Assembly (NCBI GenBank): GCA_022826745.1 | Contig: JAJDUI010000008.1 | Location: 267,283-331,282, forward strand | Length of the DNA stretch: 64,000 nt | Origin: Thermoanaerobaculia bacterium | GTDB taxonomy: Bacteria > Acidobacteriota > Thermoanaerobaculia > Multivoradales > Multivoraceae | Reading direction: 5' to 3' | Part shown: in pieces, positions 1 to 27,350 of the stretch | Layout: the number at the start of each line of letters is the position of its first letter | Numbering within the stretch: position 1 is the stretch's first letter | Made by a program: the position numbers and the translations under genes | Notes under the pieces: model-generated | Told to the model about the DNA's origin: nothing | The model's input: only the letters and a program-made list of their open reading frames with translations | Database searches by the model: none

Positions 1-766
1 GGTGCGAGCCGACCGTCCACTCGGCTCCCTGACGGGCGATCTGCTCCGCTTCGGCCCGGGTCGGCGCGCAGGCGACGAGGCGAGCCATCGGGATCTCGCG
101 GCCCTCGATGGAGTGGCCGTGGTTCTCCAGGATCCCCCGGTAGAGCTCCCGCTTCTCGGCGAGCCGTGCGTGGTCCGCGTGCGGGTCCATCATGATCGAG
201 AAGCCGTTCTCGGCGGCCCAGTTCATCGCTTCCGGCGACGAGGCGGCGAGCCACACCGGCGGATGCGGCTTCTGCGCCGGTTTCGGCAGTACCTCGACGT
301 TCTCGCACTGGAAGTGATCGCCCGCGAAGGTCACGCGCTCCTGGGTCCAGGCGCCGATCACCGTTTGGACGTGCTCGCGGAACACCTCGTAGCTGTGCTG
401 CGGGTCGACGCCGAAGGCCTTGAACTCGGCCTCCTGGTAGCCGCGGCCGACTCCCCAGTTCACCCGGCCTCCGGACAGGACGTCGAGTAGCGCCACCTCC
501 TCGGCCAGCCGCAGCGGGTTGTAGAACGGCGCGAGGGAGACGCCGGTGCCGATGCGGAGGTTCTTCGTCCGGGCGGCCACGTGGGTGCCCATGAGGTGAA
601 TCGAAGGGCAGATGCTGAACGAGCTGAAGTGGTGTTCCGCCAGCCACACGGCGTCGTAGCCGTTCTGCTCCATGATGTCGATGCGCTGGAACGCCCGGTG
701 GTAGACCTGATCCAGCGGAATCCGCCGGTCCGGCCACGAGAAGAACTGGAGCACGCCGACTTTCAT
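1..766 (-). CDS. Luciferase-like monooxygenase (LLM) class flavin/F420-dependent oxidoreductase. ATG at 766; the C-terminus lies beyond the window start.
   Basis: My own translation of the minus strand gives MKVGVLQFFSWPDRRIPLDQVYHRAFQRIDIMEQNGYDAVWLAEHHFSSFSICPS...GRGYQEAEFKAFG..., a typical LLM N-terminus with a continuous frame to position 1. It is absent from the ORF track because it has no in-window stop. Confidence 0.75.
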   Translation of the reverse strand, partial: MKVGVLQFFSWPDRRIPLDQVYHRAFQRIDIMEQNGYDAVWLAEHHFSSFSICPSIHLMGTHVAARTKNLRIGTGVSLAPFYNPLRLAEEVALLDVLSGGRVNWGVGRGYQEAEFKAFGVDPQHSYEVFREHVQTVIGAWTQERVTFAGDHFQCENVEVLPKPAQKPHPPVWLAASSPEAMNWAAENGFSIMMDPHADHARLAEKRELYRGILENHGHSIEGREIPMARLVACAPTRAEAEQIARQGAEWTVGSH

Positions 767-843
767 GGGCCGGCAATCGTCTCATAGTTCTGCTGGTCGA
801 ACCGGGGGTTGGCGTGATCCGCCGGATCGGTCAGAGTTCGGCC

Positions 844-1428
844 ATGGCGACCGCCACCGATCCCTTCGAGCGCTTCCGCGACCTCTTCGAGCGCGCCTCG
901 GCCACGAGCCTGACCGAACCGAACGCGATGGTCGTCTCGAGCGCCGACGAGCAGGGCCGCCCGTCGTCCCGGGTCGTGCTGCTGAAGCACTTCGACCGCG
1001 ACGGCTTCGTCTTCTACACGAACCTCGAGAGCCGCAAGGGCCGGGAGATCCTGGCTCGGTCGGATGTGAGCCTGAACTTCTTCTGGCGCGAACCGAAGGA
1101 GCAGGTGTGCGTCTTCGGCCGCGCCGTGAAGGTCAGCGACGAGGAGGCCGACGCCTACTTCGCGACCCGGGACCGGAGCAGCCAGCTCGGCGCCTGGGCG
1201 TCGCAGCAGAGCCGGCCGCTGGCAAGCCGCGAACAGCTCGTGGACGGCTTCGAGCAGGTGACGGAGCGTTTCGCCGGCCGTGACGTGCCGCGGCCGCCGC
1301 ACTGGACGGGGCTGCGGGTCGTGCCCCGGCGGTTCGAGTTCTGGGTCGCGCGGGAGCACCGGCTCCATGACCGGACGTTTTACGAGCGGGACGGCGACTC
1401 GTGGGTGGTGGGCCTGTTGTACCCCTAG
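844..1428 (+). CDS. pdxH: Pyridoxamine 5'-phosphate oxidase
   Basis: GFVFYTNLESRKGREI, NFFWREPKEQV, SQLGAWASQQS, RFEFWVAREHRLHDRTFYER match PdxH conserved blocks. ATG 844 aligns with the E. coli PdxH core; GTG 814 is an alternative start. Confidence 0.85.
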   Translation: MATATDPFERFRDLFERASATSLTEPNAMVVSSADEQGRPSSRVVLLKHFDRDGFVFYTNLESRKGREILARSDVSLNFFWREPKEQVCVFGRAVKVSDEEADAYFATRDRSSQLGAWASQQSRPLASREQLVDGFEQVTERFAGRDVPRPPHWTGLRVVPRRFEFWVAREHRLHDRTFYERDGDSWVVGLLYP

Positions 1429-1438
1429 CCCCCGGTTC

Positions 1439-2542
1439 TCAGTACACCCGCGGCACGATGCGCCATGGCACCCGCCGCCGGTACTCGTCCCACAGGGCGC
1501 CGTACTTCGCGGCGCAGCGGCGGTCGTCGTCGCGCTCGCGGGGCACGAGCAGGAGGACGTAGTACAGCGGATAGAGCCAGGGAGCGATGAGCGCCGGGTA
1601 GCCGAGGCTCAGGGCAAGCCCGGTCGCCATCAGGATCTCGCCGAGATAGTTGACGTGGCGCGAGACGCCCCAGAAGCCGCTGCACAGGACGCGCCGCTCG
1701 CCGTCAGAGATGCTCTCCGGCCGGAACCGGCCGAGGAAGGTCCGTTCGGGATCGAGCTTGAAGTGGAACTTCTGCATGTTCGCGCCGCGGGCCAGCGACC
1801 AGCCGGCGAAGAAGACCAGCGCGGCCAGAACGAGCAGCCAGACGGGGGCGTGGGGATTGGGCAGGCCGGCGGCGGCCCAGAGGCCCACGCCGTAGACGTA
1901 CGGGTAGAAGAAGAGGCAACCCCAGACGAGCTTGAAACCGACCCGCTCGGCGAAGAGGTCGTAGGTGTAGAGGTGAACCCGCTCGAAGAACAGGTAGTCG
2001 CAGATGAACCAGGTGAAGACGGCGACGTAGAGGACGACGCCGGGCGACGGATCGCCGGGATACGTCGAGTAGTGATGAACGGCGAACGAGAGCAGGTTCA
2101 GCTCGAGCAGGGTGGCGCCGAAGACGTAGAGGAACATCTTCGCGTCGACGCGGCCGGCGAACAGGCGCGGATTGGCGCGCCTGCCGAGGTAGAACTCCTT
2201 CAGGAAGGAACCGCCGCGGCCCGGCGCCGTCACGACGACCGCCACCGAAGCGGCGATGCCGAGCCCCAGGGCCCCCGTGGCGCCGCTCCAGCGGTGAGTC
2301 CACAGCCAGTCCCAGGGCATCACGCCGCTGTAGCCGGCCAGGAGCCACAGGCCGACCGTGACGGCGAAGACGAGCAGCCCGTTCAGACGGTACTGGAGAA
2401 GCTCGCCGGTCCGTTCGTCACGGACGTAGCCCGTGACCCGGCGGGCGGGCAGCAGGACGCTGAGACCGAGGATGACGGCGCAGACGAGCCAGGGCGTCAG
2501 GAAGCCCGGATACGGTGACAGGTCGGCGATGTAGACCTTCAA
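1439..2542 (-). CDS. ERG4/ERG24 (sterol-reductase / 7-DHCR-like) family polytopic membrane reductase homolog
   Basis: The 367-aa protein is very hydrophobic. Its C-terminal LCSGFWGVSRHVNYLGEILMA resembles the sterol-reductase signature G-[FW]-W-x-x-x-R-H-x-N-Y-x-G-[DE]. TTG start 3 nt after the boxB stop, with GAGG in the boxB 3' end. Confidence 0.5.
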   Translation of the reverse strand: MKVYIADLSPYPGFLTPWLVCAVILGLSVLLPARRVTGYVRDERTGELLQYRLNGLLVFAVTVGLWLLAGYSGVMPWDWLWTHRWSGATGALGLGIAASVAVVVTAPGRGGSFLKEFYLGRRANPRLFAGRVDAKMFLYVFGATLLELNLLSFAVHHYSTYPGDPSPGVVLYVAVFTWFICDYLFFERVHLYTYDLFAERVGFKLVWGCLFFYPYVYGVGLWAAAGLPNPHAPVWLLVLAALVFFAGWSLARGANMQKFHFKLDPERTFLGRFRPESISDGERRVLCSGFWGVSRHVNYLGEILMATGLALSLGYPALIAPWLYPLYYVLLLVPRERDDDRRCAAKYGALWDEYRRRVPWRIVPRVY

Positions 2543-2545
2543 CCC

Positions 2546-4009
2546 CTACGCCTCGGCCAGCTTGACCCACTCGAAGTCGCCGGGCTTGTGGTTGATCCGG
2601 ATCCGCGGTTCGGCGATCCAGGAGGCGTAGTGGCCGGGCCGGAACTCGGGGTTCATCAGCGATTCGATGAAGGCGCGGTCGCCGTCGTCGGGCAGCCATT
2701 CGTGTCGGCGCCGGGTCCACTCGTCTTCCGGGACGATCTCGCCGTCCGGCGTGGCATGCAGGTCACGGTAGACACCGATCTGACGGTGGAAGGCCACGTG
2801 TGGCAGCGTGATCTCGAAGTCGACCCCGGCCTGGCGGATCGTCTTGTTCCAGCGGCCAACGCCGAGGCTGCAGTCGCCGGTGAAGTCGTCGCGCAGGCGT
2901 GCGTTCAGGGCGTTGAGCGCCGGGTGTTCGACCGTCTTCCAGGCGCCGTTGGACGGTTCCGGGATGCCGTAGGTCGCTTTGTGCAGCCGGTGGTCGTCGT
3001 CCAGCCGGTGCTCGCGAAAGCGGCCCTTGAGGCCGGCGTTGAAGAAGTTGGCCGAGTTCGTGGACAGTTCGGAGCCGAACAGGTCGAGGGTCAGCGAGTA
3101 GTGGAGGTTCACTTTCTTCTGGATCGTCGGCAGGTCGATCACGCCGAGCGCCCGCACCGCCTCGACGTCGGTCGGATCGTCGATTCCGGCCTCGCGCATC
3201 GCCTCGCACGTCCGCTGGACGATGCGGGTCACGCCGGTCTCGCCGACGAACATGTGGAACGCCTCCTCCGTCAGCATGAAGCGGCAGGTGCGGGACAGCG
3301 GGTCGAAGCCGGACTGCGCCAGCGATTCGAGCTGCATCCTGCCGTCGCGGTCGGTGAAGAAGGTGAACAGGAAGAAGGAGAGCCAGTCCGGCGTCTCCTC
3401 GTTGAACGCGCCGAGCATGCGCGGGGCGTCGTCGGAGCCGGAGCGGCGGCGCAGCAGTTCGCCTGCCTCCTCCCGGCCGTCGCGGCCGAAGTACTTCTGC
3501 AGCAGGTAGACCATCGCCCAGAGGTGGCGCCCCTCCTCGACGTTGACCTGGAACAGGTTCCGCATGTCGTAGAGCGAGGGAGCGGTCTTGCCCAGGAAGC
3601 GCTGCTGCTCGACGGAAGCCGGCTCGGTGTCGCCCTGGATCACGATCAGGCGCCGGAGCATCGCGCGGTACTCGCCGGGAACCTCCTGCCAGGCGGGCTC
3701 GCCGACGTGGCGGCCGAAGGGGATCTTCCGGTCCGGGTCCTGCGGCGCGAGCAGGATGCCCCAGCGGTAGTCGGGCATCTTCACGTAGTCGAAGACGGCC
3801 CACTTGTCCGCGCCCTTCGACTCGACCCGCACCGCGGTGCGGAGATAGACGTCGGAGGTCTGGAAGCCGTCAGGCCCCATGTCCATCCACCAGTCGATGT
3901 AGCCGGGGTGCCAGCGTTCCAGGCCGCGGCGGACCCGGGCGTCCGACGCCAGGGCGACGTTGTTCGGAATCAGGACGTCGTAGTCGACGGTGCTGTCCAG
4001 CGTGGTCAT
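2546..4009 (-). CDS. boxB: Benzoyl-CoA 2,3-epoxidase (oxygenase) subunit B, di-iron enzyme
   Basis: IPNNVALASD...WHPGYIDWWMDMGPDG...VKMPDYRWGILLAPQDPDRKIPFGRHVGEPAWQEVPGEYRAMLRRLIVIQGDTEPASVEQQ...NVEEGRHLWAMVYLL is near-identical in pattern to Azoarcus BoxB as I recall it. Confidence 0.85.
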   Translation of the reverse strand: MTTLDSTVDYDVLIPNNVALASDARVRRGLERWHPGYIDWWMDMGPDGFQTSDVYLRTAVRVESKGADKWAVFDYVKMPDYRWGILLAPQDPDRKIPFGRHVGEPAWQEVPGEYRAMLRRLIVIQGDTEPASVEQQRFLGKTAPSLYDMRNLFQVNVEEGRHLWAMVYLLQKYFGRDGREEAGELLRRRSGSDDAPRMLGAFNEETPDWLSFFLFTFFTDRDGRMQLESLAQSGFDPLSRTCRFMLTEEAFHMFVGETGVTRIVQRTCEAMREAGIDDPTDVEAVRALGVIDLPTIQKKVNLHYSLTLDLFGSELSTNSANFFNAGLKGRFREHRLDDDHRLHKATYGIPEPSNGAWKTVEHPALNALNARLRDDFTGDCSLGVGRWNKTIRQAGVDFEITLPHVAFHRQIGVYRDLHATPDGEIVPEDEWTRRRHEWLPDDGDRAFIESLMNPEFRPGHYASWIAEPRIRINHKPGDFEWVKLAEA

Positions 4010-4020
4010 CGTGTGCTCCG

Positions 4021-5733
4021 TCAGATGCGTTCGCTGTCGAATCGTGGGCGGCGGCCGGTGCCGTAGAGGCGGAGTGCCCCCTCCTCGCCGACCGCGTTGG
4101 GGCGTTGGAAGATCCAGTTCTGCCAGGCGCTGAGGCGTCCGAAGATCTTGCTCTCGAGGGTCTCCGGCCCGGGGAAGCGGAGGTTGGCCTCCAGCGCGGT
4201 CAGCGCGTCGGGCGAGAAGCTGGCCCGTTCCTCGAGCGCGATGCGCACTTCGTCCTCCCAGTCCAGGTCGTCCAGGATCTCGGTGACCAGGCCGGCCGCC
4301 TCGGCGTCTTCGGCTTCGAGAGGAGCGCCGACGAGTTCACGGAGCCGCTCCGTGGCATCCTCCTCGCCGAGGAACCGGGTCTCGAGGCGGGAGAGCCCGT
4401 TCGGGGTGGGGAAGGCTCCGAAGTTCAGTTCGCCTAGCTGGATGGACGGCGGCAGTGCGCCGTCCTCGCTCTCGCCCTCGAACATGTAGGAGCGGTCCGA
4501 GGCCAGCGGGAGTTCGAGCAGCAGGCCGGCGAAGCAGCTCCCCGGCGCGATCAGCGTGAATACGCTGCGCGCGGTCAGGTCGAGGCGCTTGAGCACCCGC
4601 TTCCAGTACAGCAGCACCTCGCGCACGAACCAGTGCTCGCGCGTCCGGTGGAGGAACGCGTCGAAGGCGGCCACCGCGCCGAGGTCGCCTTCGGACTCGA
4701 TGACGAGCTGCCCGATCCGGGTCTCGTTCAGGCGCAGGTGGAGCAGGGCGTCGTCGAGTTCACGCGCCAGGACGAGAGGCCAGAAGGCCGCGCTCCCGGC
4801 GAGTGCTTCCGGCGCGTCGCCCGGCGGCGGCTCGGACGGACCGAGCACGGTCAGACGGGCGGCGCCCAGCTCGCGGTCGAACTCGATGCGGAGCGTCGAG
4901 TAGACGATGGAGTCTCCCACCAGTTTCGTTTCGACCCCGGGCCAGTCCGCTCCTCCGTCGTCGTCCGGCCGGTCGCTCGTAGCGGCGATTTCCAACGCGC
5001 GTGTGCTGGCGCCGTCGTCGAAGGACGATCGCGGCAGCAGTTCGTCGACCAGGTTCCAGTCCACGGCGCGCCGGCCCTTGACGCCTTCCTCCAGGGTGCA
5101 GAAGAGGTCGGCCCGGTCGCGGCGAACGCGGCGCTTGTCGAGCAGCCGGGTCAGTCCGCCGGTGCCTGGCAGGACGCCGAGCAGCGGCACTTCGGGCAGC
5201 GAGACGGCCGAACTCCCGTCGTCGGCGAGCAGGATGCGGTCGCAGGCGAGCGCCAGCTCGTAGCCGCCGCCCGCCGCCGTGCCGCGGATCGCGCAGAGGT
5301 AGCGCTGGCCGGAGTGCTGGCAGGCGTCCTCGATCGCCAGCCGGGTCTCGTTCGTGAACTTGCAGAAGTTCACCTTCAACTGGTGCGACGAAGCGCCGAG
5401 CATGCCGATGTTGGCGCCGGCGCAGAAGATCCGGTCGCGGTCGGAGCGGAGCACGACGGCGTGAACCTCCGGATGCTCGAAGCGCAGTCGTTGGGTGGCG
5501 TCGTAGAGCTCGAAGTCGACGCCGAGGTCGTAGGAGTTCTGCTTGAGCTGATAACCCGGCCGGAGCCCCGCCTGCTCGTCGACCTCCAGGGTCAGGAAGG
5601 CGAGCGGCGGTTCGATCCTGAGCTGCCAGTGCCGGTAGCGGTCGGGGTCAGTGCGGAAGTCGATGGGCTCTGTCGCGGCGGTTTCACCGGCCGGGTGCCC
5701 GGAAGGTCCGTCCGCGGTGGCCTGCTTGGACAT
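4021..5733 (-). CDS. boxC: 2,3-epoxybenzoyl-CoA dihydrolase / benzoyl-CoA-dihydrodiol lyase (crotonase superfamily)
   Basis: DFRTDPDRYRHWQL...GYQLKQNSYDLGVDFELYDATQRLRFEHPEV...VNFCKFTNETR...SLPEVPLLGVLPGTGGLTR...RIALEERASFSPDALTALEANLRFPGPE...RLSAWQNWIFQRPNAVGEEGAL aligns with BoxC. ATG 5733 (MSKQATADG...) aligns with the BoxC N-terminus. The track start GTG 5796 would leave only 5 bp to the divergent ABC ATPase start. Confidence 0.85.
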   Translation of the reverse strand: MSKQATADGPSGHPAGETAATEPIDFRTDPDRYRHWQLRIEPPLAFLTLEVDEQAGLRPGYQLKQNSYDLGVDFELYDATQRLRFEHPEVHAVVLRSDRDRIFCAGANIGMLGASSHQLKVNFCKFTNETRLAIEDACQHSGQRYLCAIRGTAAGGGYELALACDRILLADDGSSAVSLPEVPLLGVLPGTGGLTRLLDKRRVRRDRADLFCTLEEGVKGRRAVDWNLVDELLPRSSFDDGASTRALEIAATSDRPDDDGGADWPGVETKLVGDSIVYSTLRIEFDRELGAARLTVLGPSEPPPGDAPEALAGSAAFWPLVLARELDDALLHLRLNETRIGQLVIESEGDLGAVAAFDAFLHRTREHWFVREVLLYWKRVLKRLDLTARSVFTLIAPGSCFAGLLLELPLASDRSYMFEGESEDGALPPSIQLGELNFGAFPTPNGLSRLETRFLGEEDATERLRELVGAPLEAEDAEAAGLVTEILDDLDWEDEVRIALEERASFSPDALTALEANLRFPGPETLESKIFGRLSAWQNWIFQRPNAVGEEGALRLYGTGRRPRFDSERI

Positions 5734-5801
5734 CTGGTTGGTAGGGGAGCCCTGTTCCTGTTCGAGCGGCCCTTGCCGGTTGGTGAGTATAGTCACGCTT
5801 C

Positions 5802-6944
5802 GTGAGCGTCCCGGCCCCTGACGATCGCGGCGAGAGCCGCGTTCCGCACGTCGAGTTCGTTGGCGTAGACAAGAGCTACGACGGTGAGAACCTCGTCGTG
5901 CGTGGGCTCGATCTCGCCGTGGAGCGAGGCGAGTTTCTGACCCTGCTGGGGCCTTCCGGCTCGGGCAAGACGACCTGCCTGATGATGCTCGCGGGCTTCG
6001 AGGCGCCGACCGCGGGGACGATCCGCATTGCCGGCCGGCCGATCCAGGATCTACCGCCCCACAGGCGCGGGATCGGCATGGTGTTTCAGAACTACGCCCT
6101 GTTCCCCCACATGACGGTCGGCGGCAACCTGGCCTTCCCGCTCGAGGTCCGCGGCGTCGAGCCGGCCCTGCGGCGGGAGCGGGTCAAGCGGGCGCTCAGC
6201 CTGGTGCAACTGGAGGGGTTGGAGGACCGGCGACCGGCCCAGCTCTCCGGCGGCCAGCAGCAGCGGGTGGCGATCGCCCGCGCCCTGGTGTTCGAGCCGG
6301 AGATCGTCCTGATGGACGAGCCGCTAGGCGCTCTCGACCGGCGTCTGCGCGAGGAGATGCAGTACGAGATCCGGCGCATCCACTCCACTCTGGGAGTGAC
6401 GGTCGTCTACGTGACGCACGACCAGCAGGAGGCGATGACGCTCTCCGACCGGGTGGCGGTGTTCCACAACGGGGTCATCGAGCAGGCGGCGTCGCCCGAG
6501 GTCCTGTACGAGGAACCCGAGAAGGCCTTCGTGGCCCGGTTCATCGGCGAGAACAACCGGCTCGACGGCGTCGTGGTCAGCGACGAGGACGGCGTCTGTG
6601 AAGTGGACATCGGCGGCCAGAAGGTCCGCGCGATGAGCCTGGGTCTGTGCCCTCCGGGCGCTCGAACCACGGTCGTGATCCGGCCCGAGCGCGTCGCGGT
6701 GGCGCCGCCGGACGGCCGCTACCGGAACGAGATCGAGACGCGGATCGACGACATGATCTTCCTCGGCGACCATCTTCGCCTTCACATGACGGTCGGGGGC
6801 GCCTCCGACTTCATCGCGAAGATCCCGAACGTCGTGGGTCACGGCGCCGTGCTGCCGGGCGACACCGTACGAGTTGGCTGGGCGGCGCTCGACTGCCGGG
6901 CGCTGGTGCCGGAGGAGTTGGCGGAAGGCGAAGAAGAGTGGTGA
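5802..6944 (+). CDS. ABC transporter ATP-binding protein (PotA/spermidine-putrescine type, with C-terminal TOBE/MOP-like domain)
   Basis: Walker [10 protein letters not shown], signature [15 protein letters not shown], Walker [11 protein letters not shown], and the [10 protein letters not shown] motif. GTG start. Confidence 0.85.
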
Positions 6945-8056: not shown

Positions 8057-9171
8057 AGAGTTCGGGCGCGATCGTCCTGAGCGTCATCGTGGTCGCCGGC
8101 TGCCGGCTGGCCGCGGACCCTCCTCCGGGTTCGGCGCCGGGCAGCGATGCGGGCGAGCGCTCGATCACCGCCGTCTCCTACGGAGGCTCTTACGCCCGCG
8201 CCTGCGTCAAGGGCTACCACGAGTCCTTCACGGAGGAGACCGGGGTGCGGGTCGATCTCGCCGACTTCCAGGGAGGACTGGCCCAGGTCCGGGCCCAGGT
8301 CGAAGCCGGCGTGGTTCACTGGGACGTCGTCGATCTCTCCGTGGCCGAGACGGTCAACGGCTGCGACGAAGGCGTCCTGGAACTGATCGATCCCTCCATC
8401 CTGCCGGCGGGTCCCGGCGGGGAGCTTCCGGAGGACGACTTTCTGCCGGAGATGAACACGGAGTGCGGCGTGGGCAACCTGCTGTTCTCCTCGATCTTCG
8501 CGTACAACCGGGAGATCCTGACGGGGCCGCCGCCGACCCGGCTCGCCGACTTCTTCGATCTGGAACGGTTCCCCGGGCGGCGGGGCATGAGGCGATCGCC
8601 CGAGGCGAACCTGGAGATGGCGCTGATGGCGGACGGAGTTCCCAAGGAACGCGTCTACGACGTGCTGAGTACGCCGGAGGGCCTGGAACGGGTGTTCCGG
8701 AAGCTCGACACGATCAAGGACCGGGTCGTGTGGTGGGACACCTCCGCCCAGGCGCCGCAGTTGCTGGCGGACGGCGAGGTGCTCATGACGACGGCCGCCA
8801 ACGGACGCATCTTCAACGCCCAGGTGCTCGAGGGACAGCCCTTCGTCATCGTGTGGGACGGCCAGGTCCTGAACCGGGGCCAGCTCGCTATCGTCGCGGG
8901 TACGCCGCGGCTCGAGGACGCGCTGCGATTCGTCGAGCATGCCGCCCGCTCCGAGTCGATGGCGGGCGTGGGCCGCTACATCGCCTACAGTCCGGCGCGC
9001 TACTCGGCGGAGAAACTGATCGACCGGCATTTCGAAACGGGCACGGAGATGTGGCCGCACATGCCGACGAACCCCGCGAACATGAAGAACTACCTGATGA
9101 CCGACTGGCAGTGGTGGGCGGACCACGGCGACGAGATGCTGGAGCGCTTCACCGCCTGGCTGGCGCGATGA
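8053..9171 (+). CDS. ABC transporter substrate-binding lipoprotein, paralog 2 (tandem duplicate)
   Basis: ATGA overlap. Lipobox VVAGC. By eye about 70% identical to paralog 1 over the full length (SYGGSYARAC, HWDVVDL, NGCDEGVLELI, ...WPHMPTNPANMKN...). Confidence 0.8.
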   Translation: MKSSGAIVLSVIVVAGCRLAADPPPGSAPGSDAGERSITAVSYGGSYARACVKGYHESFTEETGVRVDLADFQGGLAQVRAQVEAGVVHWDVVDLSVAETVNGCDEGVLELIDPSILPAGPGGELPEDDFLPEMNTECGVGNLLFSSIFAYNREILTGPPPTRLADFFDLERFPGRRGMRRSPEANLEMALMADGVPKERVYDVLSTPEGLERVFRKLDTIKDRVVWWDTSAQAPQLLADGEVLMTTAANGRIFNAQVLEGQPFVIVWDGQVLNRGQLAIVAGTPRLEDALRFVEHAARSESMAGVGRYIAYSPARYSAEKLIDRHFETGTEMWPHMPTNPANMKNYLMTDWQWWADHGDEMLERFTAWLAR

Positions 9172-9187
9172 AGGTTGGAGTAGAGCC

Positions 9188-10465
9188 GTGACGGCGCAGG
9201 AATCTCCAGGCGTGAGCCAGCCGGCAGCCAGACCGCTGTGGCGCCGGGCGATGGGGCCGCGGTTGCGGGCGGCCGGTCTCGCCCTGCCGTTGGTGGCGTT
9301 CGTCTCCGTGACGTTCCTCGGTCCGATGGTCAACCTGCTGACGAAGAGCTTCTACGATCCGGAGGTCGCCGACGCGCTGCCGGAGACGATGTCCGCGTTG
9401 CGCGACTGGGATGGCCAGGGAACTCCGTCCGACGAGGCGTTCGCGGCCACCGCCCGTGAGTTCGTCGCGGCACGGGAGGAGCGCACCCTGGGACGCACGG
9501 CCAACCGCGTGAACCGTGTCGTGAGCGGCATGCGCAGCACGATCATGGGTGATTCGCGGGAGATGGCCGAGGCGGCCGCCGTTGCGGAGGATGCCGGCGT
9601 CGAGATGGGCGGCGCCTTCTGGCGCGAGACGATGATCGGCATCGACGCCCGCTGGGGCGGTCCCGAGCCTTGGCGTGCGCTTCGGGCCGCCGGCCAGCGG
9701 TTGACGGCCCGCCACTACCTCAAGGCGCTCGACTTCGAGCGCGCTCCCGATGGCGGCTACCAGCGGGCGCCGGAGGCCTGGCGGATCTACGTGCCGCTGT
9801 TCTGGCGGACGTTCCTCGTCAGTCTGGGCGTCACGCTGCTCTGCCTGGTCATCGGCTATCCGGTGGCCCACATGATCGCCAACTCGCCGCCGAAGCGCGC
9901 CAACGTCCTGCTGCTGCTCGTCCTGCTGCCGTTCTGGACCTCGCTGCTCGTGCGGACCACGTCGTGGATCGTCCTGCTCCAGAACCAGGGCATCGTGAAC
10001 GACTTCCTGGTCGCGATCGGACTGATCGGCGACGACGGCCGGATCGCGATGATCTACAACATGACGGGCACGTTCGTTGCGATGACCCATGTGCTGCTGC
10101 CGTTCCTGGTCCTGCCGCTGTACTCGGTCATGCGGGCCATCCCGCCCGCCTACATGAACGCCGCCGTGTCGCTGGGTGCGACCCCGTTCCAGGCGCTGCG
10201 CCGGGTCTATTGGCCGCAGACGCTGCCGGGCGTCGGCGCCGGCTGCCTGCTCACCTTCATCCTGGCGATCGGCTACTACATCACCCCGGCCCTGGTCGGC
10301 GGCCAGAGCGGGCAGTTGATCTCGAACATGATCGCCTACCACGTCCAGACCTCGCTCAACTGGGGTCTGGCCGCCGCGCTGGCGGCGCTGCTGCTGGGCG
10401 GCGTGACCCTGCTCTACGTGGTGTACGACCGCCTGGTCGGCATCGACCGGATCGGACTCGGATGA
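9188..10465 (+). CDS. ABC transporter permease (PotB/CysT-like), with a ~150-aa periplasmic insertion between TM1 and TM2
   Basis: Several TM segments. EAA-like loop region. GTG start. Confidence 0.75.
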   Translation: MTAQESPGVSQPAARPLWRRAMGPRLRAAGLALPLVAFVSVTFLGPMVNLLTKSFYDPEVADALPETMSALRDWDGQGTPSDEAFAATAREFVAAREERTLGRTANRVNRVVSGMRSTIMGDSREMAEAAAVAEDAGVEMGGAFWRETMIGIDARWGGPEPWRALRAAGQRLTARHYLKALDFERAPDGGYQRAPEAWRIYVPLFWRTFLVSLGVTLLCLVIGYPVAHMIANSPPKRANVLLLLVLLPFWTSLLVRTTSWIVLLQNQGIVNDFLVAIGLIGDDGRIAMIYNMTGTFVAMTHVLLPFLVLPLYSVMRAIPPAYMNAAVSLGATPFQALRRVYWPQTLPGVGAGCLLTFILAIGYYITPALVGGQSGQLISNMIAYHVQTSLNWGLAAALAALLLGGVTLLYVVYDRLVGIDRIGLG

Positions 10466-11298: not shown

Positions 11299-11303
11299 CT
11301 TCG

Positions 11304-12305
11304 GTGAGCGACGACGACCACGGCATCACGCTGGAGGCGGTCGAAGACACGGTCGCGCTGATCGCTCCTCACATCGTTGAAACGCCGGTCGTCGAGTGGT
11401 CGGGCCCCGAGATGCGGGCGATGCTGCCGGGGAACAGCCGCGTCCACGCCAAGCTGGAGCTCTTTCAGCGCTCCGGTACGTTCAAGGCGCGAGGGGCGCT
11501 GTCGAACGTCCTGCGACTGAGCGCCGAACAACTGCGGGCCGGCGTGACGGCCATGAGCGCGGGCAATCACGCGGTCGCCGTGGCGTATGCGGCGAAGGCG
11601 GCCGGGACCAGCGCGAAGGTCGTCATGCAGCGATCGGCGAATCCGGCGCGTGTCGAGTTGGCCGAGGCGCTTGGCGCCGAGATCCTGATGGCGGAGGATG
11701 GCCCCAGCGGATTCGAGATGGTGGCCGGGATCGCGGCCGCGGAAGGCCGGGCGATGATCCATCCATTCGACGGCGTGGCGACGGCCCTCGGCGCGGCGAC
11801 GCTCGGTTTCGAGATGCATCGGCAGCTTGGAGACCTCGACGTGCTCGTCGTCGCCATCGGTGGCGGCGGTCTGGCTGGGGGCGTGTCGGCAATCACGAAG
11901 CGACTGAACCCCGATTGCCTGGTTGTCGGCGTGGAACCCGTGGGCGCCGACGCCATGCACAGGAGCTTCAGGTCGGGCAGACCGGAGCGCCTTGAAGGCG
12001 TGGACACCATCGCGGACAGTCTGGCGCCGCCCATGACCGAACGGCTGCCCTTCACGCTCTGCAGAAGCAACGTGGATCGGCTCGCCCTGGTCACCGACCG
12101 CGAGTTGGCTCAAGCCATGGGGCTCATCTTCAGAGAACTGAAGCTCGCCGTGGAGCCCGCCTGCGCCGCCACCACGGCTTCCCTGCCGGGTCTCGCCGAC
12201 GAGTTCTCGGGTGCGCGTGTCGGGCTGATCCTCTGCGGGTCGAACATCGACCGGAACACGTACGATCGGTACTGCGAGCTCGGCGAGGGTCGATTCCGTT
12301 CCTGA
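11304..12305 (+). CDS. PLP-dependent threonine/serine dehydratase family enzyme (fold type II), co-operonic with the ABC importer
   Basis: FQRSGTFKARGA (PLP lysine motif), AGNHA, GGGGL Gly loop, alignment to TdcB by memory. GTG start 6 nt after the permease stop. Confidence 0.75.
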   Translation: MSDDDHGITLEAVEDTVALIAPHIVETPVVEWSGPEMRAMLPGNSRVHAKLELFQRSGTFKARGALSNVLRLSAEQLRAGVTAMSAGNHAVAVAYAAKAAGTSAKVVMQRSANPARVELAEALGAEILMAEDGPSGFEMVAGIAAAEGRAMIHPFDGVATALGAATLGFEMHRQLGDLDVLVVAIGGGGLAGGVSAITKRLNPDCLVVGVEPVGADAMHRSFRSGRPERLEGVDTIADSLAPPMTERLPFTLCRSNVDRLALVTDRELAQAMGLIFRELKLAVEPACAATTASLPGLADEFSGARVGLILCGSNIDRNTYDRYCELGEGRFRS

Positions 12306-12356
12306 TCGGCTTTCGGGCGGCCGGGTGCCGAGCCTGAACGAGGGAAGGACTCCCGC

Positions 12357-15300
12357 CTAGAGGACGCCGAGGCGGCTGAACAAGCAGTGGACGTAGTTGG
12401 GGTCGTCCCTCTGGAACAGAACGTGACGTTCGGCCAGGTCCTGCCGGCTGAGCGCGCGCCCATCAACCTGCCAGCGTTCGTCCAGATCCTTGAGGCGAGT
12501 GACGGAGACGATGAACGACTCGAGGCGAGCGCGGCTGTCCGACAGCCGCTCTTCGACCTCCTTGATCGTTGTGCTGAGAAGGACCTTCGGGTCGTCCGGC
12601 CCCGATAGGTGCACCAGACCCTTCGGGTCTACGAAGGCGATGTGCTGGCGGCCGTCGCGGAGCGCCCACAGGATGAAGTCGGGGTGGAAGTTGTTCGCCT
12701 CGAAAAAGCCGATGCCGCGCCCCCGACTCTGGTTGCGCATGAGGTGGATGCGGATTCCTGCGAGTGCGGCCGCCTGCTGCTGGAGGAAGTCCTGCAGGTC
12801 GCGGACGAAGCGGTACTCGCCTTCGTTCAGTGTGGGCGGCGAGACCCGGAGCTTGTCGTTCTCGACTGACAGCAGGGGCCAGTACAGGTGCTCGTTCAGA
12901 CGAAGCGCCCTGACCTGGTGCCTGTCCCAATCGGAGAGCCTCCCTTGCTCGATCGCCCGCTTCAGATCGGCGAGACTCTGTTCGAGATCGCCGACGTCGC
13001 TGGTGCCAGCCGTTGAGGCAACCTCGACGAAGAAGCCCTGGCCGCCGCGCCCGCCGGTCACTTGGAGGTTCGGGTCGTCGTCGCGTAGCGGCTGAATCTC
13101 CAAGTGCCGGGCTTCCCAAGCCTGGCGACAAAGGGCGTAGTAGCGAGCGGTGTACTTCCTGAGCAGGGAACCGGCGATCTCCTGCCAGTGGCGGACGTTG
13201 GACCAGTTGTCGTGCTCGAACAGGGTTGCGGGCGCCTGGAGCCGGTACCAGGAGGGGTCGGCAAGCAGTTGGCGGATCGCAGTACGCGACACGGTCAGGT
13301 TGTGCCAGCCGCGTTCCGTCTTGAAACGCGCGAGATCGAAGAAAAGTGCCTCCTGATCGATGAGGCGGATGTGGTCGCGGTCCAAGGTCGCCTCATTCTT
13401 CGAGATGACCTCGGCACTGGAGTCGACGGAGGCGAGCGTTCGCACCTTGGGGTTCCAGTCGAGGCGGACTGCCGGATGAAGCCGGTTCCTGATCGGGCAC
13501 GGCGCCTGAGCGGGTGGGCCAAGGACGGGCATCGGGCCGCGGCGGCGGAAGGCTGCCTCGGGTTCGGCGCCGGCTACGTCCTCGGCAAGTCTGATCGTCT
13601 CGAGCGGGGGGTCGTGCGGCAGGGCTTGTCGTTGAACCGGAAGGAAGAACTCCTCGCGGTCGGCGGCAACTCCCTCCTGTTCCAGGAAGTCACGGAACTG
13701 CGCCATGTAGTTCGCCCGGATGCCGAACACCTGGAGCGTTTCCAGATGCGGCAGCGCCGCGGGCGCCTCGCTAGCGACGTTTGGGAGCGCCGAACTCCGC
13801 TTGAGAGTCATATCGCGACCCTTCAGTCGGACGCCGCGGCCGAACATCTGGATGATCTGGGCGCCTTCGGTCCTACCGACGTTCATCAGGCCCATCGAAC
13901 TGACGCGCCAGCTGTTCCAGCCTTCCGTGAACTTCCGGGCGCCGACGACGAGGTGGATGTGAGAGTCCGCGGACTGGACGTCGTCGAAGGCCGACTCCGA
14001 GAACACCCGCTCGGTCACGACGATGCCAGCGTCCCGGCAGCGCTTGGCGAGCTTCCCTCCGTCGCCGACGTTGATCACGCCGAACGGTTCGTTCTCTCCG
14101 AGCCGAAGCGTTAGTTCCCCACCGGTCCCCTTGAGACGTTCGACTCGGAGACCGCCGCCTCCCGGTGCATTGAAGGTCTTGGAGAGCGTTTCACTGAAGA
14201 TGCTCCCGGCATTCATGCCCGAGTTCTGAAGGGGAGCGAACTGATCGGCGAACAGGTTCCTGCCGCCGGTGGTCTCGAGTCCGTGTTCCAGTAGGGCCTG
14301 GATGCTCGTCGTACTGGCGCTTGCGTTCTGGACGTACTCGTCGAGGAACTGGACGATCCGAACCACATCGGATGCATCGTCCTGGTTCAGGCCCTTCGTG
14401 ACCCGGCTTCCGACAAACACCCACAACGGCCGCTCGATGGCCCAGGGGCCGAGCGCTCTTCCTTCACGGCTGTAGAGCCACTGCTGCTGAAAGAAGGCGA
14501 GCAGGGCCGCGGTCAGGTAGCGCTGCTGCCAGTCGGCGTCGTGGTGGCCCTCGAGGTTGGCGATCCGGTAGTCCTTGCCGTAGCCGTCGCCGTGAAACCA
14601 GCGGTACGAGTAGTCGAACAGAATCGACCGGGCGTACGTGTTGGTCAGTTTCCGGTCCTTGTCCACCGCCTGGCCGAAGGTCGCCGAGTACTCGAACGAG
14701 AACCCACGCTCGCAGAGTTCGTCGCGCCTTCGCATCCACTGGCCCTGTTGGCCCGAGGAGGCGCCGCGGTGTCCTTCGTCGACGAGCACGAGGTTGTTGC
14801 CCTCGAAGGCGGCCACGGCGACTCTCTTCTCCCCCATCTCGTCGTGCAGCTTGTGTACGTCGAGCACTTCGACCCAGGCGCCGGGGAGGGCGTTCCGGTC
14901 GAACGGGCGCGCCGCGATACCGGCGACTTCGAACTCGTCCAGGTGCTGGCGAGAGAGGCCTTCGTTCGGGGTCAAGAGAATGATGCGGTTCAACGCATGA
15001 TGTCGATCGTGCCGCCCGAGGAACTCCCGGAAGAGAAGGAGGTGGGCATGCATGAGCAGCGTCTTGCCGCTTCCAGTAGCCATCCAGAACGCCAGCTTGT
15101 TCAGCAGGTTCGCGGCGTCCCGATCGGTCGTGGGCTCGGCGGTCGGTTCGATGCGGTCGCCTTTCGGGAGGTCCCGGTTCAGGGACTGAATCGCCGTGTT
15201 CAGTTCGGCGAGCAGCCGCTTCGGATCACGGAACCAGAGGTCCAGGTAGATGTCCGTTGCCAGTAGCGCCAGGTACTGGAAGTAGAGCCACCGGATCGGG

Positions 15301-15593
15301 CGCTTGCCGCGGCGGAGGCGAGCCTCGTTCAGTCGTTGAGTGATCGCCACGATCCGCTGGTCCGCCTCCAGTAGGCGGTCGTCGGGCAGGTCGGGCCGCT
15401 TCTCCGTGGGCACGTGCAGGCGAAGCGCCTCGTGGAAGCGATGAACGTTGTCCGCCGTGAGTCCCGGGAACTCATCACCCTTCATGTGTCCGGCGAGTCC
15501 GTTCAGGTTCTCGCAACCGAACAGGCCGAGTAGCCAGCGATGGAGCGCCAGTTTTCGCGAGAAGGCCACTCGCTTCCGTTTAGACCGGGCCAT
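12357..15593 (-). CDS. Type III restriction enzyme Res-like subunit: SF2 helicase plus C-terminal PD-(D/E)xK nuclease
   Basis: Motif I ATGSGKT, motif II LVLVDEGHR, motif VI QMFGRGVRL. C-terminal PDFILWAL...FVDPKG nuclease-like motif. ATG 15593 (MARSKRKR...) preferred. The track start TTG 15731 would overlap the mod stop by 4 nt but adds an Arg-rich stretch. Confidence 0.65.
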   Translation of the reverse strand: MARSKRKRVAFSRKLALHRWLLGLFGCENLNGLAGHMKGDEFPGLTADNVHRFHEALRLHVPTEKRPDLPDDRLLEADQRIVAITQRLNEARLRRGKRPIRWLYFQYLALLATDIYLDLWFRDPKRLLAELNTAIQSLNRDLPKGDRIEPTAEPTTDRDAANLLNKLAFWMATGSGKTLLMHAHLLLFREFLGRHDRHHALNRIILLTPNEGLSRQHLDEFEVAGIAARPFDRNALPGAWVEVLDVHKLHDEMGEKRVAVAAFEGNNLVLVDEGHRGASSGQQGQWMRRRDELCERGFSFEYSATFGQAVDKDRKLTNTYARSILFDYSYRWFHGDGYGKDYRIANLEGHHDADWQQRYLTAALLAFFQQQWLYSREGRALGPWAIERPLWVFVGSRVTKGLNQDDASDVVRIVQFLDEYVQNASASTTSIQALLEHGLETTGGRNLFADQFAPLQNSGMNAGSIFSETLSKTFNAPGGGGLRVERLKGTGGELTLRLGENEPFGVINVGDGGKLAKRCRDAGIVVTERVFSESAFDDVQSADSHIHLVVGARKFTEGWNSWRVSSMGLMNVGRTEGAQIIQMFGRGVRLKGRDMTLKRSSALPNVASEAPAALPHLETLQVFGIRANYMAQFRDFLEQEGVAADREEFFLPVQRQALPHDPPLETIRLAEDVAGAEPEAAFRRRGPMPVLGPPAQAPCPIRNRLHPAVRLDWNPKVRTLASVDSSAEVISKNEATLDRDHIRLIDQEALFFDLARFKTERGWHNLTVSRTAIRQLLADPSWYRLQAPATLFEHDNWSNVRHWQEIAGSLLRKYTARYYALCRQAWEARHLEIQPLRDDDPNLQVTGGRGGQGFFVEVASTAGTSDVGDLEQSLADLKRAIEQGRLSDWDRHQVRALRLNEHLYWPLLSVENDKLRVSPPTLNEGEYRFVRDLQDFLQQQAAALAGIRIHLMRNQSRGRGIGFFEANNFHPDFILWALRDGRQHIAFVDPKGLVHLSGPDDPKVLLSTTIKEVEERLSDSRARLESFIVSVTRLKDLDERWQVDGRALSRQDLAERHVLFQRDDPNYVHCLFSRLGVL

Positions 15594-15727
15594 CGCCCCG
15601 GTTCGCCCGCAGGCCGGCCGCGTAGCCGCGCAGCGGCGTTCCGACCGCCGCCTGCCGCTTGCGGGGCGGCCAACTACGGCGAAGAAATCCCGTGCCTGCG
15701 GGAAGCGGGCGTCGGCGGCGACGGTGA

Positions 15728-19087
<3,360 letters not shown>

Positions 19088-24705: not shown

Positions 24706-25452
24706 ATGGCGACGTCGCGAACGGTTCCCTGGGCGGAACTCGACACGATCTTCTTCGACGCCGGCAACACCTTCCTGTCGATGGACTTCGACCGGGTCGC
24801 CGCCGTGGCGGCCAGTCTGGGCGTCGAGTGCTCGGGAACGCAACTGGAGCGTGCGGAGGCGGCGGCGCGGCCGGAGCTTTCCGCGGCGCTGGCCGAGAGG
24901 CGGACGACCGAAGGCGGCGGGGCCTTTCGCTTCTACCTGCGAGCGACTCTCGAGCGGCTGCCGGCGTCCAGCCGGGACGGGGTCGACTTGGGCGACGTGG
25001 TCTCCGGGCTGGCGGAGCGGCTGTTCCTGCCGGGCCGCAACGACCGGCTCTGGAACCGCAGGCTGCCGGGGCGAAGGGAAGCGCTCGAGCGGATCCGCGC
25101 GCTCGGCTATCGCATGGTGGTCGTCAGCAACTCGGACGGCAGCATGGCGCGGACTGTCACCCGGATCGGCATGGACCATCTCTTCGACGGTCTGGTCGAC
25201 TCGACGGTCGTCGGCTTCGAGAAACCGGACCCGCGGATCTTCGACGTCGCGCTCGATCTGGCCGGTGCATGTCCGGAACGGACGGTGCACGTGGGTGATC
25301 TGTACGCCGCCGACGTCGTGGGCGCCCGGACCGCCGGCGTCCACGCCGTCCTGCTCGACCCCTTCGGCGACTGGCCGGAGGTCGACTGCCCGAAGGTGGC
25401 CGATCTGGACGAGCTGGCCGCCCTGCTGCCGGGGCCGCCGGGGCGCGCGTGA
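24706..25452 (+). CDS. HAD-superfamily hydrolase
   Basis: N-terminal FFDAGNTF (HAD motif I variant). Later GDLYAADVVGA motif. Confidence 0.6.
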   Translation: MATSRTVPWAELDTIFFDAGNTFLSMDFDRVAAVAASLGVECSGTQLERAEAAARPELSAALAERRTTEGGGAFRFYLRATLERLPASSRDGVDLGDVVSGLAERLFLPGRNDRLWNRRLPGRREALERIRALGYRMVVVSNSDGSMARTVTRIGMDHLFDGLVDSTVVGFEKPDPRIFDVALDLAGACPERTVHVGDLYAADVVGARTAGVHAVLLDPFGDWPEVDCPKVADLDELAALLPGPPGRA

Positions 25453-26273
25453 AGCCCGCGGAGGTTCGCCGGCACCGCCATCGGTTCTACGAGGCGGCCG
25501 TTCAGAACGTGGAAGTGGACATCGACTTCGTCGAGCGCGTCTATCGCCGCCTCAACGGACGGTTGCCCGCCACCCTGCGGGAGGACTTCTGCGGCACCGC
25601 CTCGCTGGCGAGCGCCTTCGCCGCGCGCAGGCCGGAGAACCGCGCCTGGGGCGTCGACCTCCACCGGCCGACCCTGGACTGGGGGCGGCGCAACCGGGTG
25701 GAGGCCAGATGCGTCGAGGACCGGGTCGAGCTGGAGTGCCGCGACGTGCGCCTGGCCGGCAGCCCGGCGGTAGACGTGCAGGTTGCCTTCAACTTCTCCT
25801 TCTTTCTGTTCCCGGGCCGCGGCGAGATGCTGGACTACTTCCGGGCGGCGAAGCGCTCGCTCGAGCCGGGAGGCCTGTTCGTGCTGGACGCCTTCGGCGG
25901 TACGGATTCGTTTCAGGCCACCACCGAGGACACGGAGATCGAGGCCTCGGCAGGCGTCGACGGAGTCGCCTTGCCGGCTTTCACCTACAGTTGGGACCAG
26001 CTCGCCTTCAACGCCGTCGACCACTGGATGCGCTGCGCGATGCACTTCACGCCGGCGGGCAGGGAGACGGTGCGCAACGTGTTCCGCTACGCGTGGCGGA
26101 TGTGGACCCTGCCCGAGATCCGGGAGTTGCTGGCCGAGGCCGGCTTCGACGATGTCGAGGTGTACGGCGAGGGCTGGGATGCCGGCAGCGGGGAAGGGAA
26201 CGGCATCTTCCGGCGCCGCACGCGGATGGCGAACGAGGGCAGTTGGGTCGTCTACGTGGTGGCGCGCTACTGA
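25449..26273 (+). CDS. Class I SAM-dependent methyltransferase
   Basis: EDFCGTASLA (motif I-like) and LEPGGLFVLD (post-II). GTGA overlap with the HAD gene. Confidence 0.6.
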   Translation: MKPAEVRRHRHRFYEAAVQNVEVDIDFVERVYRRLNGRLPATLREDFCGTASLASAFAARRPENRAWGVDLHRPTLDWGRRNRVEARCVEDRVELECRDVRLAGSPAVDVQVAFNFSFFLFPGRGEMLDYFRAAKRSLEPGGLFVLDAFGGTDSFQATTEDTEIEASAGVDGVALPAFTYSWDQLAFNAVDHWMRCAMHFTPAGRETVRNVFRYAWRMWTLPEIRELLAEAGFDDVEVYGEGWDAGSGEGNGIFRRRTRMANEGSWVVYVVARY

Positions 26274-27325: not shown

Positions 27326-27350
27326 CCTCAAGCCTCAGGCGCCGGAGAGC

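Follow-up and report, generated by a model that had tools for sequence, protein, structure and literature searches.

A sterol-reductase-type membrane protein gene behind boxCB in a clade of sponge-associated Acidobacteria

The 64-kb window (the whole stretch of DNA analyzed) contains only two box genes, boxC and boxB, the genes for the ring opening of benzoyl-CoA, and the gene directly behind boxB encodes a membrane reductase. The question raised by this locus is whether the membrane reductase delivers electrons to BoxB, the di-iron subunit of benzoyl-CoA 2,3-epoxidase, or whether its position has another explanation.

The boxC-boxB-reductase locus

A reading of the letters and ORFs of the window (hereafter referred to as the sequence-only reading) had described boxC (positions 4021–5796; 591 aa), boxB (2546–4009; 487 aa) and a gene for a polytopic membrane protein (1439–2542; 367 aa) as three minus-strand ORFs, and all three were recovered at these positions. 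Both box assignments held, with scores above the equivalog cutoffs for boxC (TIGR03222, 837 bits against 712; Pfam ECH_1) and boxB (TIGR03225, 840 bits against 499), and BoxB was 72–83% identical to the BoxB of many genomes. The boxC stop is 11 nt from the boxB start. The family match begins only at residue 45, and translation of boxC may therefore start at an internal codon, such as that of Met22 (5733).

The junction between boxB and the reductase gene (2540–2548, minus strand) reads ...GCC GAG GCG TAG GGG TTG AAG..., with the TAG stop codon of boxB (2546–2548), a GGG spacer (2543–2545) and a TTG start codon (2540–2542) in a single reading frame. The reductase gene does, as claimed, start 3 nt after the boxB stop, and no start other than TTG is possible, as the frame opens directly after the TAG. 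The same junction was found in two related loci (L005 and L008); in the remaining members of the clade described below, boxB and the reductase gene overlap by 25 nt or are separated by 22, 43 or 109 nt. A read-through fusion of BoxB and the reductase, the two ORFs sharing a frame across a single TAG, was considered and rejected, as this frame relation is present in only 3 of 13 loci. An SD within the 3' end of boxB had been taken to imply translational coupling. The SD-like GAGG is present, 8 nt upstream from the TTG, but it is not independent evidence of coupling, because it is part of the last codons of boxB, which are conserved, and is also unchanged in relatives in which the reductase starts 22–109 nt further downstream.

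A promoter and terminator scan of positions 700–6300 found nothing resembling a promoter; its one terminator-like site was below chance expectation. The genes boxC, boxB and the reductase gene, all in the same orientation, are almost certainly carried on the same transcript. The end of this transcription unit is marked by pdxH (814–1428, plus strand; TIGR00558, 243 bits), which is convergent with the reductase gene, with 10 nt between the stop codons, and which occupies the same position in 10 of the 12 box-linked genome loci. The flanks proved to be as first described: a luciferase-like oxidoreductase gene (2–766) lies beyond pdxH and, on the other side, an ABC importer ATPase gene (5802–6944, plus strand; from the ORF list) is transcribed divergently from boxC and followed by genes for two binding proteins, two permeases and one PLP enzyme, up to about 12305. 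These genes recur, with Pfam labels, in the syntenic locus L001.

The lack of a BoxA-like gene, a benzoate-CoA ligase gene and boxD, also proposed initially, was borne out for the window by tblastn and a motif scan, together with Pfam scans covering 34 of its 40 predicted genes. No BoxA-like ORF, 2x[4Fe-4S] motif, FNR-like domain, AMP-binding ligase or aldehyde dehydrogenase was detected among the predicted genes of the 64 kb; the window has no CxxCxxCxxxC motif, and no CoA ligase, boxD or boxR-type regulator was found in it. A complete aerobic box locus (ligase, boxA, boxB, boxC, boxD and regulator) is not contained within the 64 kb. Nor does the locus correspond to a bacterial sterol-synthesis gene cluster, with CYP51, oxidosqualene cyclase or sterol methyltransferase genes nearby: no P450, cyclase or other sterol-synthesis gene was found among the 34 of 40 window genes scanned, and the sole methyltransferase-like ORF (25449–26273) gave only a borderline generic match (Methyltransf_25).

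The membrane reductase and its orthologs

The 367-aa ORF had been described as ERG4/ERG24-like, and the Pfam scan agreed: PF01222 (ERG4_ERG24) matched with 168 bits against a cutoff of 27 (E=3e-49), residues 18–367 aligning with model positions 75–432, whereas the match to DUF1295 was weak and there was none to ICMT or PEMT. The sterol-reductase-type signature noted earlier, GFWGVSRHVNYLGE, was found, as were at least seven hydrophobic segments; NCBIfam gave the protein no specific name. The sequence matches that of MaSR1 (PDB 4QUV) with E=4e-42, and an AlphaFold model (pLDDT 79, pTM 0.81) matched the same structure (E=1e-15, TM 0.77/0.73, 360 columns), the MaSR1 fold covering the whole length; the next structural matches, to SRD5A2 and ICMT, were weak. 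N298 and R335, which are invariant in the alignment of orthologs, align with the NADPH-pocket residues N359 and R395 of MaSR1, the counterparts of N547 and R583 of LBR (PMC4951196). At the sequence level, the ORF is a full-length homolog of the NADPH-dependent delta14-sterol reductase MaSR1, and its product is predicted to be an NADPH-dependent C=C reductase of this type. In membrane steroid reductases, C=C bonds are reduced at the expense of NADPH, and the substrate enters from the bilayer (PMC7591894). The Pfam scan identified no Fer4, FAD_binding_6 or NAD_binding_1 domain in the reductase, Pfam and a Cys-cluster motif scan together revealed no Fe-S, flavin or haem module, and tblastn detected no similarity to the BoxA of Mycetohabitans.

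The comparison was based on about 170 related loci, with a set of reductase orthologs from 80 species-level genomes or loci in which box genes were sought within 10 kb. In 60 of these 80, a short-chain dehydrogenase (SDR; adh_short) gene lies immediately upstream from the reductase gene and no box gene is present within 10 kb. The orthologs concerned (62–75% identity) come mostly from sponge symbionts, labeled as belonging to at least six phyla. The two genes are translationally coupled in these genomes, overlapping by 4 or 1 nt at 55 of the 58 junctions measured. No other conserved neighbor was found and no P450 or cyclase gene was conserved either, the only sterol-related hint from gene context being a CYP51-like P450 gene directly upstream from a 66%-identical ortholog in one myxobacterial MAG. 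The SDR showed only sub-threshold similarity in NCBIfam, to mycolate reductase and 7beta-hydroxysteroid dehydrogenase. This cassette of SDR and sterol-type reductase looks like a horizontally shared module, possibly with sterol-like lipids of the host as its substrates. The names of the ‘Candidatus’ genera to which sponge MAGs are assigned had no match in the literature.

The box-linked reductases, from 12 loci of sponge Acidobacteria and the window, form a monophyletic group nested within the SDR-linked sequences in the tree. As the 12 box-linked genomes are one clade, they reflect a single event. In all 12 species-level genomes, the reductase gene lies directly behind boxB on the same strand (25-nt overlap to 109-nt gap) and, given this constant position, it is probably co-expressed with boxCB; there may be selection for the arrangement in this clade. 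The sequence-only reading was to be refuted by a boxA elsewhere in the genome with bclA/boxD, together with a membrane ORF of a methyltransferase family that adjoins boxB nowhere else. This refutation did not occur: the protein is a true ERG4/ERG24 member, and 12 more species-level genomes have its gene beside boxB. The SDR partner was not found within 10 kb on either side of the 12 box-linked loci or in the 64-kb window. All 13 box-linked copies have an intact ORF (84–96% identity), and the clade keeps 115 of the 117 columns conserved at ≥97% elsewhere, with only two clade-specific fixed residues.

boxA-less relatives and the origin of the arrangement

Among the nearest metagenomic boxB loci (69–74% identity; up to 6 kb on each side of boxB where the contig allows), 58 of 69 had no BoxA-like ORF in the locus. 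In all five relatives on long contigs (L087–L091; BoxB 73–83% identical), unrelated genes lie downstream from boxC and boxB, with no boxA nearby; boxC is frameshifted in L089, and a CoA ligase gene lies immediately upstream from boxC in L090 and L091. The one actinomycete locus examined (Nonomuraea, L086) also has no boxA nearby. The reductase gene was found in none of the 80 metagenomic boxB loci, nor in L086–L091. Together these make up the 86 boxB loci that are not from the clade; boxA is missing from the locus in 75 of them. No conserved alternative gene was found downstream from boxB as a BoxA substitute, as no cluster, that of BoxA included, was represented in more than 12 of 85 loci. 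In L168, an ORF of the flavodoxin-plus-FNR type (CysJ-like, by sequence inspection only) lies 1.6 kb downstream from boxB and was grouped with the BoxA cluster. Among the matches of at least 70% identity listed in a search with an alphaproteobacterial BoxA, none lay on a contig with the length of a known clade chromosome (4,507,104, 4,484,109 and 3,875,896 bp) or of the boxA-less relatives, a result that does not count against a boxA elsewhere in these genomes. In the loci compared, the absence of an adjacent boxA is a general feature, independent of the reductase. BoxC is co-purified with BoxB, whereas only small amounts of BoxA are involved and its action is transient (PMC4498308), which fits boxCB being the stable core pair.

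We consider it most likely that the reductase is an unrelated passenger of a boxCB pair already without boxA, having arrived only once, and that BoxB is fed by a reductase encoded elsewhere. The source would be the two-gene cassette, common among sponge-associated bacteria from many phyla, from which the reductase gene alone would have moved behind boxCB in the ancestor of the sponge-associated acidobacterial clade (Thermoanaerobaculia, ‘Candidatus Multivorans’ and relatives), to be inherited since. The reductase would retain its original job of reducing a C=C bond in a sterol-like lipid, which it would reach from the bilayer, by transfer of hydride from cytoplasmic NADPH, and BoxB would obtain its electrons from the product of an unlinked boxA or from a general ferredoxin/flavodoxin reductase system. 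We thus infer that the first alternative of the sequence-only reading, that BoxB is served by some other reductase, was right; such a reductase would also have to serve most of the closest relatives of this BoxB. Several observations count against a passenger: the reductase gene is kept behind boxB throughout the clade, it occupies the canonical boxA slot, its SDR partner is absent from the vicinity, and no sterol-synthesis gene was found among the window genes scanned.

It is highly improbable that the membrane reductase replaces BoxA, oxidizing NADPH and handing electrons to the di-iron center of BoxB. Its canonical boxA position with a 3-nt gap, its NADPH binding by homology and the lack of boxA in the 64-kb window would be in keeping with such a role, but BoxA is a 2x[4Fe-4S] plus FAD protein (PMC4498308), and the reductase has no such module, the MaSR1 fold explaining its entire length. 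Furthermore, the family transfers hydride to C=C bonds of lipids (PMC7591894) and therefore cannot supply single electrons to a di-iron site. The orthologs in 60 genomes with no box genes nearby, the boxA-less boxCB relatives that do without the reductase (0 of 86 loci outside the clade) and the near-absence of clade-specific sequence change also argue against replacement. Recruitment to benzoyl-CoA catabolism in some other way, by reducing a double bond in a product of ring opening or in a side product, or through co-regulated remodeling of membrane lipids as protection against aromatic acids, is unlikely. The BoxC product does carry a C=C bond, and the operon-like arrangement is kept in 12 species-level genomes with the usual SDR partner missing from the neighborhood, but the adjacency has a single origin and no such gene accompanies any other boxB lineage among the 86 loci. 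The unchanged state of 115 of 117 conserved positions makes a new substrate unlikely, and a pocket opening to the bilayer (PMC7591894) makes CoA thioesters poor candidates.

For the ‘Candidatus Multivorans’ clade in particular, it is very unlikely that the reductase was recruited into the box operon, using NADPH to reduce a ring-derived double bond or providing membrane-linked support to a BoxA-less epoxidase; such recruitment would explain both the loss of the SDR partner and the retention of the reductase gene beside boxB in every species of the clade. The probability that this lineage carries only a nonfunctional, decaying copy of the gene is almost negligible: its conserved partner has gone from the neighborhood and TTG is a rare start codon, but the ORF is intact in every copy, nearly all family-invariant residues are kept, and its GC3 (0.92) lies within the range of the other predicted genes of the window (about 0.72–0.97). 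The restriction to a single clade, the 60 box-free, SDR-coupled genomes and the boxA-less relatives with no reductase argue against the other alternative raised initially, that of the reductase in the role of BoxA or in an unrecognized role in benzoyl-CoA metabolism. Returning to the passenger, the evidence indicates that the association of boxCB with the reductase is a lineage-specific quirk of gene order. The membrane reductase does not point to a novel donor of electrons to BoxB, and ‘boxCB plus ERG4/24’ should not be annotated as a variant box system.

Comparison with known systems

MaSR1 of Methylomicrobium alcaliphilum and the eukaryotic ERG24, TM7SF2 and LBR belong to the same Pfam family as the window reductase. 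The latter is only about 29% identical to MaSR1 and 60 residues shorter at the N-terminus (Pfam match from model position 75), but it shares the MaSR1 fold over its whole length (TM 0.77) and the C-terminal NADPH signature, including the equivalents of N359 and R395 (PMC4951196). Unlike the genes of ERG24 clusters, it has no CYP51 or cyclase gene alongside in the window. MAGs of sponge (Ircinia) symbionts have been described as enriched in sterol-pathway genes, including that of delta14-sterol reductase (Kelly et al. 2022, PMC9531527). These genes are of the same family and from the same habitat, they occur in many phyla, and the MAG sets are partly shared, with p16x- and jk18x-type isolate names. 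ERG24-CYP51-cyclase clusters and scattered copies are described in that paper, and a term search of it revealed neither the SDR-reductase doublet nor the boxCB-linked form.

In the canonical boxC-boxB-boxA clusters of Mycetohabitans rhizoxinica (pBRH01) and Pelagibius sp., boxC and boxB are true orthologs of those of the window, in the same order and closely spaced. Canonical clusters of this kind have been described for Aromatoleum evansii. The boxA of Pelagibius overlaps boxB by 4 nt, and true BoxA displays domains of the Fer4, FAD_binding_6 and NAD_binding_1 types in Pfam. In the window, boxA is missing, as are the benzoate-CoA ligase, the boxR-type regulator and boxD, and the canonical boxA slot is taken by the unrelated membrane reductase. 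The boxA-less boxCB pairs (L087–L091, Nonomuraea L086 and 58 metagenomic loci) resemble the window in their BoxB (69–83% identical), in the position of boxC directly upstream and in having no boxA within 6–10 kb; unlike in the window, they are followed by genes for a PLP enzyme, transposases or hypothetical proteins, and never by an ERG4/ERG24 gene. A ‘boxBC’ has also been reported in UBA5794 actinobacteria (PMC12008989). As boxA is missing near boxCB in most environmental relatives of this BoxB, the textbook boxABC unit covers some of the diversity but not all of it.

The boxC-boxB-reductase locus

Three tightly packed ORFs, co-oriented and nearly contiguous, occupy positions 1439–5796 of the window on the minus strand. 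They encode BoxC (4021–5796, 591 aa; TIGR03222, 837 bits, cut-off 712), BoxB (2546–4009, 487 aa; TIGR03225, 840 bits, cut-off 499) and a 367-aa ERG4/ERG24-type membrane protein (1439–2542; Pfam ERG4_ERG24, E=3e-49), hereafter referred to as the reductase. The boxC stop and the boxB start are separated by 11 nt, and the boxB TAG precedes the TTG start of the reductase ORF by 3 nt in the identical reading frame; as the frame is open only from the boxB stop onwards, no start other than this TTG is possible. The convergent pdxH gene (814–1428) and the reductase ORF end 10 nt apart, and the transcription unit therefore ends behind this ORF. On the other side, a divergent ABC importer begins beside boxC; the last gene of its operon (about 11300–12305) encodes a PLP enzyme. 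Pfam searches of 34 of the 40 predicted genes, tblastn with a genuine BoxA and a scan for Cys motifs revealed no BoxA, ferredoxin/FNR-type reductase, aryl-CoA ligase or aldehyde dehydrogenase in the 64 kb. The sequence-only reading was thus accurate in every point of its description (ORFs, families, 3-nt junction and lack of BoxA in the window). It had also taken a Shine-Dalgarno sequence at the 3' end of boxB to imply translational coupling. A GAGG is indeed present, but it falls within the conserved final codons of boxB and is unchanged in relatives in which the downstream start lies 22–109 nt further on, and therefore provides no independent evidence for coupling. A read-through fusion of boxB and the reductase, considered on the basis of the single frame across TAG-GGG (2540–2548), was rejected: this frame is common to only three of the 13 box-linked loci (the window, L005 and L008) and is probably a coincidence.

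Other features of the window include two ORFs of ~1120 aa each, encoding a ResIII-type helicase and an N6_N4 DNA methylase (12357–19087; GC 0.62–0.65 versus about 0.69), which probably represent an acquired island for restriction-modification or defence. An McrBC-type restriction component and an adjacent 610-aa ORF (57279–60315) lie in another stretch of lower GC (0.62). Next to an N-acetylmuramoyl-L-alanine amidase gene is an actin/MreB-like ORF (26267–27331), matched by Pfam at no more than moderate strength (MreB_Mbl 60 bits, Actin 49 bits, Salactin 26 bits).

A sterol-reductase-type protein and its relatives

Beside ERG4_ERG24 (E=3e-49), the alternatives named in the sequence-only reading (DUF1295, ICMT and PEMT) gave a weak DUF1295 match and no methyltransferase family in Pfam. 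The nearest solved relative by sequence was the delta14-sterol reductase MaSR1 (4QUV; E=4e-42). Residues N298 and R335, invariant in an alignment of 19 homologues, correspond to the NADPH-pocket residues N359 and R395 of MaSR1 (PMC4951196). The AlphaFold model derived from this alignment (pLDDT 79, pTM 0.81) could be superposed on 4QUV across 360 columns (TM 0.77/0.73); besides 4QUV, steroid 5-alpha-reductase and ICMT alone emerged as fold neighbours, both weak. According to the model, the sterol-reductase fold accounts for the entire chain, with no space for an Fe-S, flavin or haem module, and no trace of such a module was found in the 367-aa protein. The product of the third ORF is, then, a bona fide sterol-reductase-type protein. 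Substrates of such enzymes enter from the bilayer and have a C=C bond reduced with cytoplasmic NADPH (PMC7591894).

A protein search identified more than 3,000 homologues; identity was at least 68% in the best 120. Scanning of one genome per GTDB species yielded 80 loci (10-kb flanks), nearly all from MAGs and many named as sponge symbionts (Candidatus Poriferisodalis, Palauibacter, Azophilus, Porisulfidus and Multivorans), with record labels including Acidobacteriota, Actinomycetota, Gemmatimonadota, Pseudomonadota, Myxococcota and Spirochaetota. Screening with the BoxB, BoxC and PdxH of the window and the gene preceding the reductase in two distant loci defined three classes. Twelve loci (L005–L015 and L084; reductase 84–96% identical) have the order boxC-boxB-reductase, with a convergent pdxH in 10. 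Sixty (62–75% identical) lack box genes in the flanks and instead have a short-chain dehydrogenase (SDR; adh_short) gene directly upstream. The remaining eight have a displaced SDR or another upstream gene (MFS transporter, M20 peptidase, CYP51-like P450 and unknowns). Of the 58 SDR-reductase junctions measured, 49 show a 4-nt overlap and six a 1-nt overlap, and no further conserved neighbour was found in the 10-kb flanks; the ancestral, widespread state is therefore a self-contained SDR-reductase cassette. Examples grouped with L016–L082 lie at 9192–11083 of L002 and 9222–11086 of L003. The cassette looks to be horizontally shared across at least six phyla, mostly in sponge-symbiont MAGs. That sponge symbionts are enriched in delta14-sterol reductase homologues has been published (PMC9531527), so the presence of the reductase gene in such a genome is not new. 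In a Nannocystaceae MAG (L083, 8632–11071), a 66% identical orthologue lies directly behind a P450 with CYP51 enzymes as its best solved relatives (E=3e-36), a hint of sterols as substrates of the subfamily. The best profile scores of the SDR, below threshold, were for mycolate reductase and 7beta-hydroxysteroid dehydrogenase models; these scores and the P450 neighbour of the myxobacterial orthologue are at most hints of lipid or sterol chemistry.

Neighbour-joining analysis of 81 reductase sequences placed the 13 from box-linked loci in one clade nested among the SDR-linked ones. NCBI labels within this clade differ (Thermoanaerobaculia, 'Candidatus Multivorans', which is placed in Thermoanaerobaculia, Holophagales and 'Acidobacteria bacterium'), but all are Acidobacteriota. 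Of the 117 alignment columns with at least 97% conservation across the remaining 68 sequences, the clade retains 115, and only two residues are fixed in it yet rare elsewhere. This lack of visible divergence argues that the clade enzyme would have the same activity as beside its SDR. The reductase gene is on the boxB strand throughout the clade, and co-transcription with boxCB is likely. Its start overlaps boxB by 25 nt in L006 and L007, and follows the boxB stop by 3 nt in the window, L005 and L008, 22 nt in six loci, 43 nt in L011 and 109 nt in L013; tight translational coupling is not conserved.

boxCB loci with no adjacent boxA

BoxB is a highly conserved protein; that of the window is 72% identical to alphaproteobacterial proteins. 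Five long contigs encoding a BoxB 73–83% identical to it (L087–L091) had no BoxA-like ORF within 10 kb, nor was one found at the boxB locus of the actinomycete Nonomuraea (L086). L087, the nearest of the boxCB relatives outside the clade (BoxB 83% identical), has a serine/threonine-dehydratase-like PLP enzyme gene (11472–12389) directly behind boxB; the importer operon of the window likewise closes with a PLP-enzyme gene. L088 has a PaaX-type regulator, boxC-boxB and a hypothetical gene on the opposite strand, and in L090 and L091 genes for a tannase and a CoA ligase precede boxC-boxB, with transposase or hypothetical genes behind it. L089 combines an intact boxB with a frameshifted boxC in three in-frame pieces (8303–9927), reflecting a pseudogene or long-read frameshift errors. 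A BoxB scan of JGI metagenome contigs identified 80 further loci (69–74% identity), none with an ERG4/ERG24 reductase. In 58 of the 69 that extend downstream by at least 1.3 kb, no BoxA-like ORF was present anywhere in the locus; the other 11 had one, directly downstream of boxB in 10, and one of the 11 further loci too short to classify (L126) ends in a truncated boxA. No alternative conserved gene was found downstream of boxB in the metagenomic loci or L086–L091.

'boxBC' has been reported without boxA in UBA5794 actinobacteria (PMC12008989), and incomplete clusters lacking BoxA occur even in Proteobacteria (PMC10803450). BoxA acts transiently and in small amounts, whereas BoxC co-purifies with BoxB, whose inhibition by product it relieves (PMC4498308). 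The gene content of the relatives and these studies therefore indicate that boxCB is a stable core pair, often with no gene for the reductase of BoxB at its side. The absence of boxA is a general matter, separate from the ERG4/ERG24 reductase, and the slot filled by the latter was probably already empty. A protein search with an alphaproteobacterial BoxA gave no match on the chromosomes of interest among the matches listed, all at least 70% identical.

Role of the reductase

We consider it quite likely that the reductase is a passenger that has kept its original lipid function. Its gene would have been placed once behind boxCB, in the ancestor of the sponge-associated clade, and would ride on the boxCB transcript; the enzyme would still use NADPH for C=C bond reduction in a sterol-like lipid, and BoxB would receive electrons from an unlinked boxA or a general ferredoxin/flavodoxin system. 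Some other recruited role in benzoate catabolism, for which only the conserved place in the operon and the lack of an SDR partner nearby would speak, we regard as unlikely. That the gene is a decaying remnant, in a clade retaining nearly all the conserved columns, is the least probable of the readings.

Substitution for BoxA, the new electron-transfer partner implied by the sequence-only reading, was not borne out and is very improbable: the fold has no Fe-S, flavin or haem module, orthologues exist without box genes, and boxCB relatives exist with neither the reductase nor an adjacent boxA. Known BoxA is soluble, with two [4Fe-4S] clusters and FAD (PMC4498308), and the true BoxA of Pelagibius has Fer4, FAD_binding_6 and NAD_binding_1 domains and a gene overlapping boxB by 4 nt, whereas the 367-aa protein lacks such modules. 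The arrangement in the window is real but ordinary, a lineage-specific gene-order variant joining two known kinds of gene.
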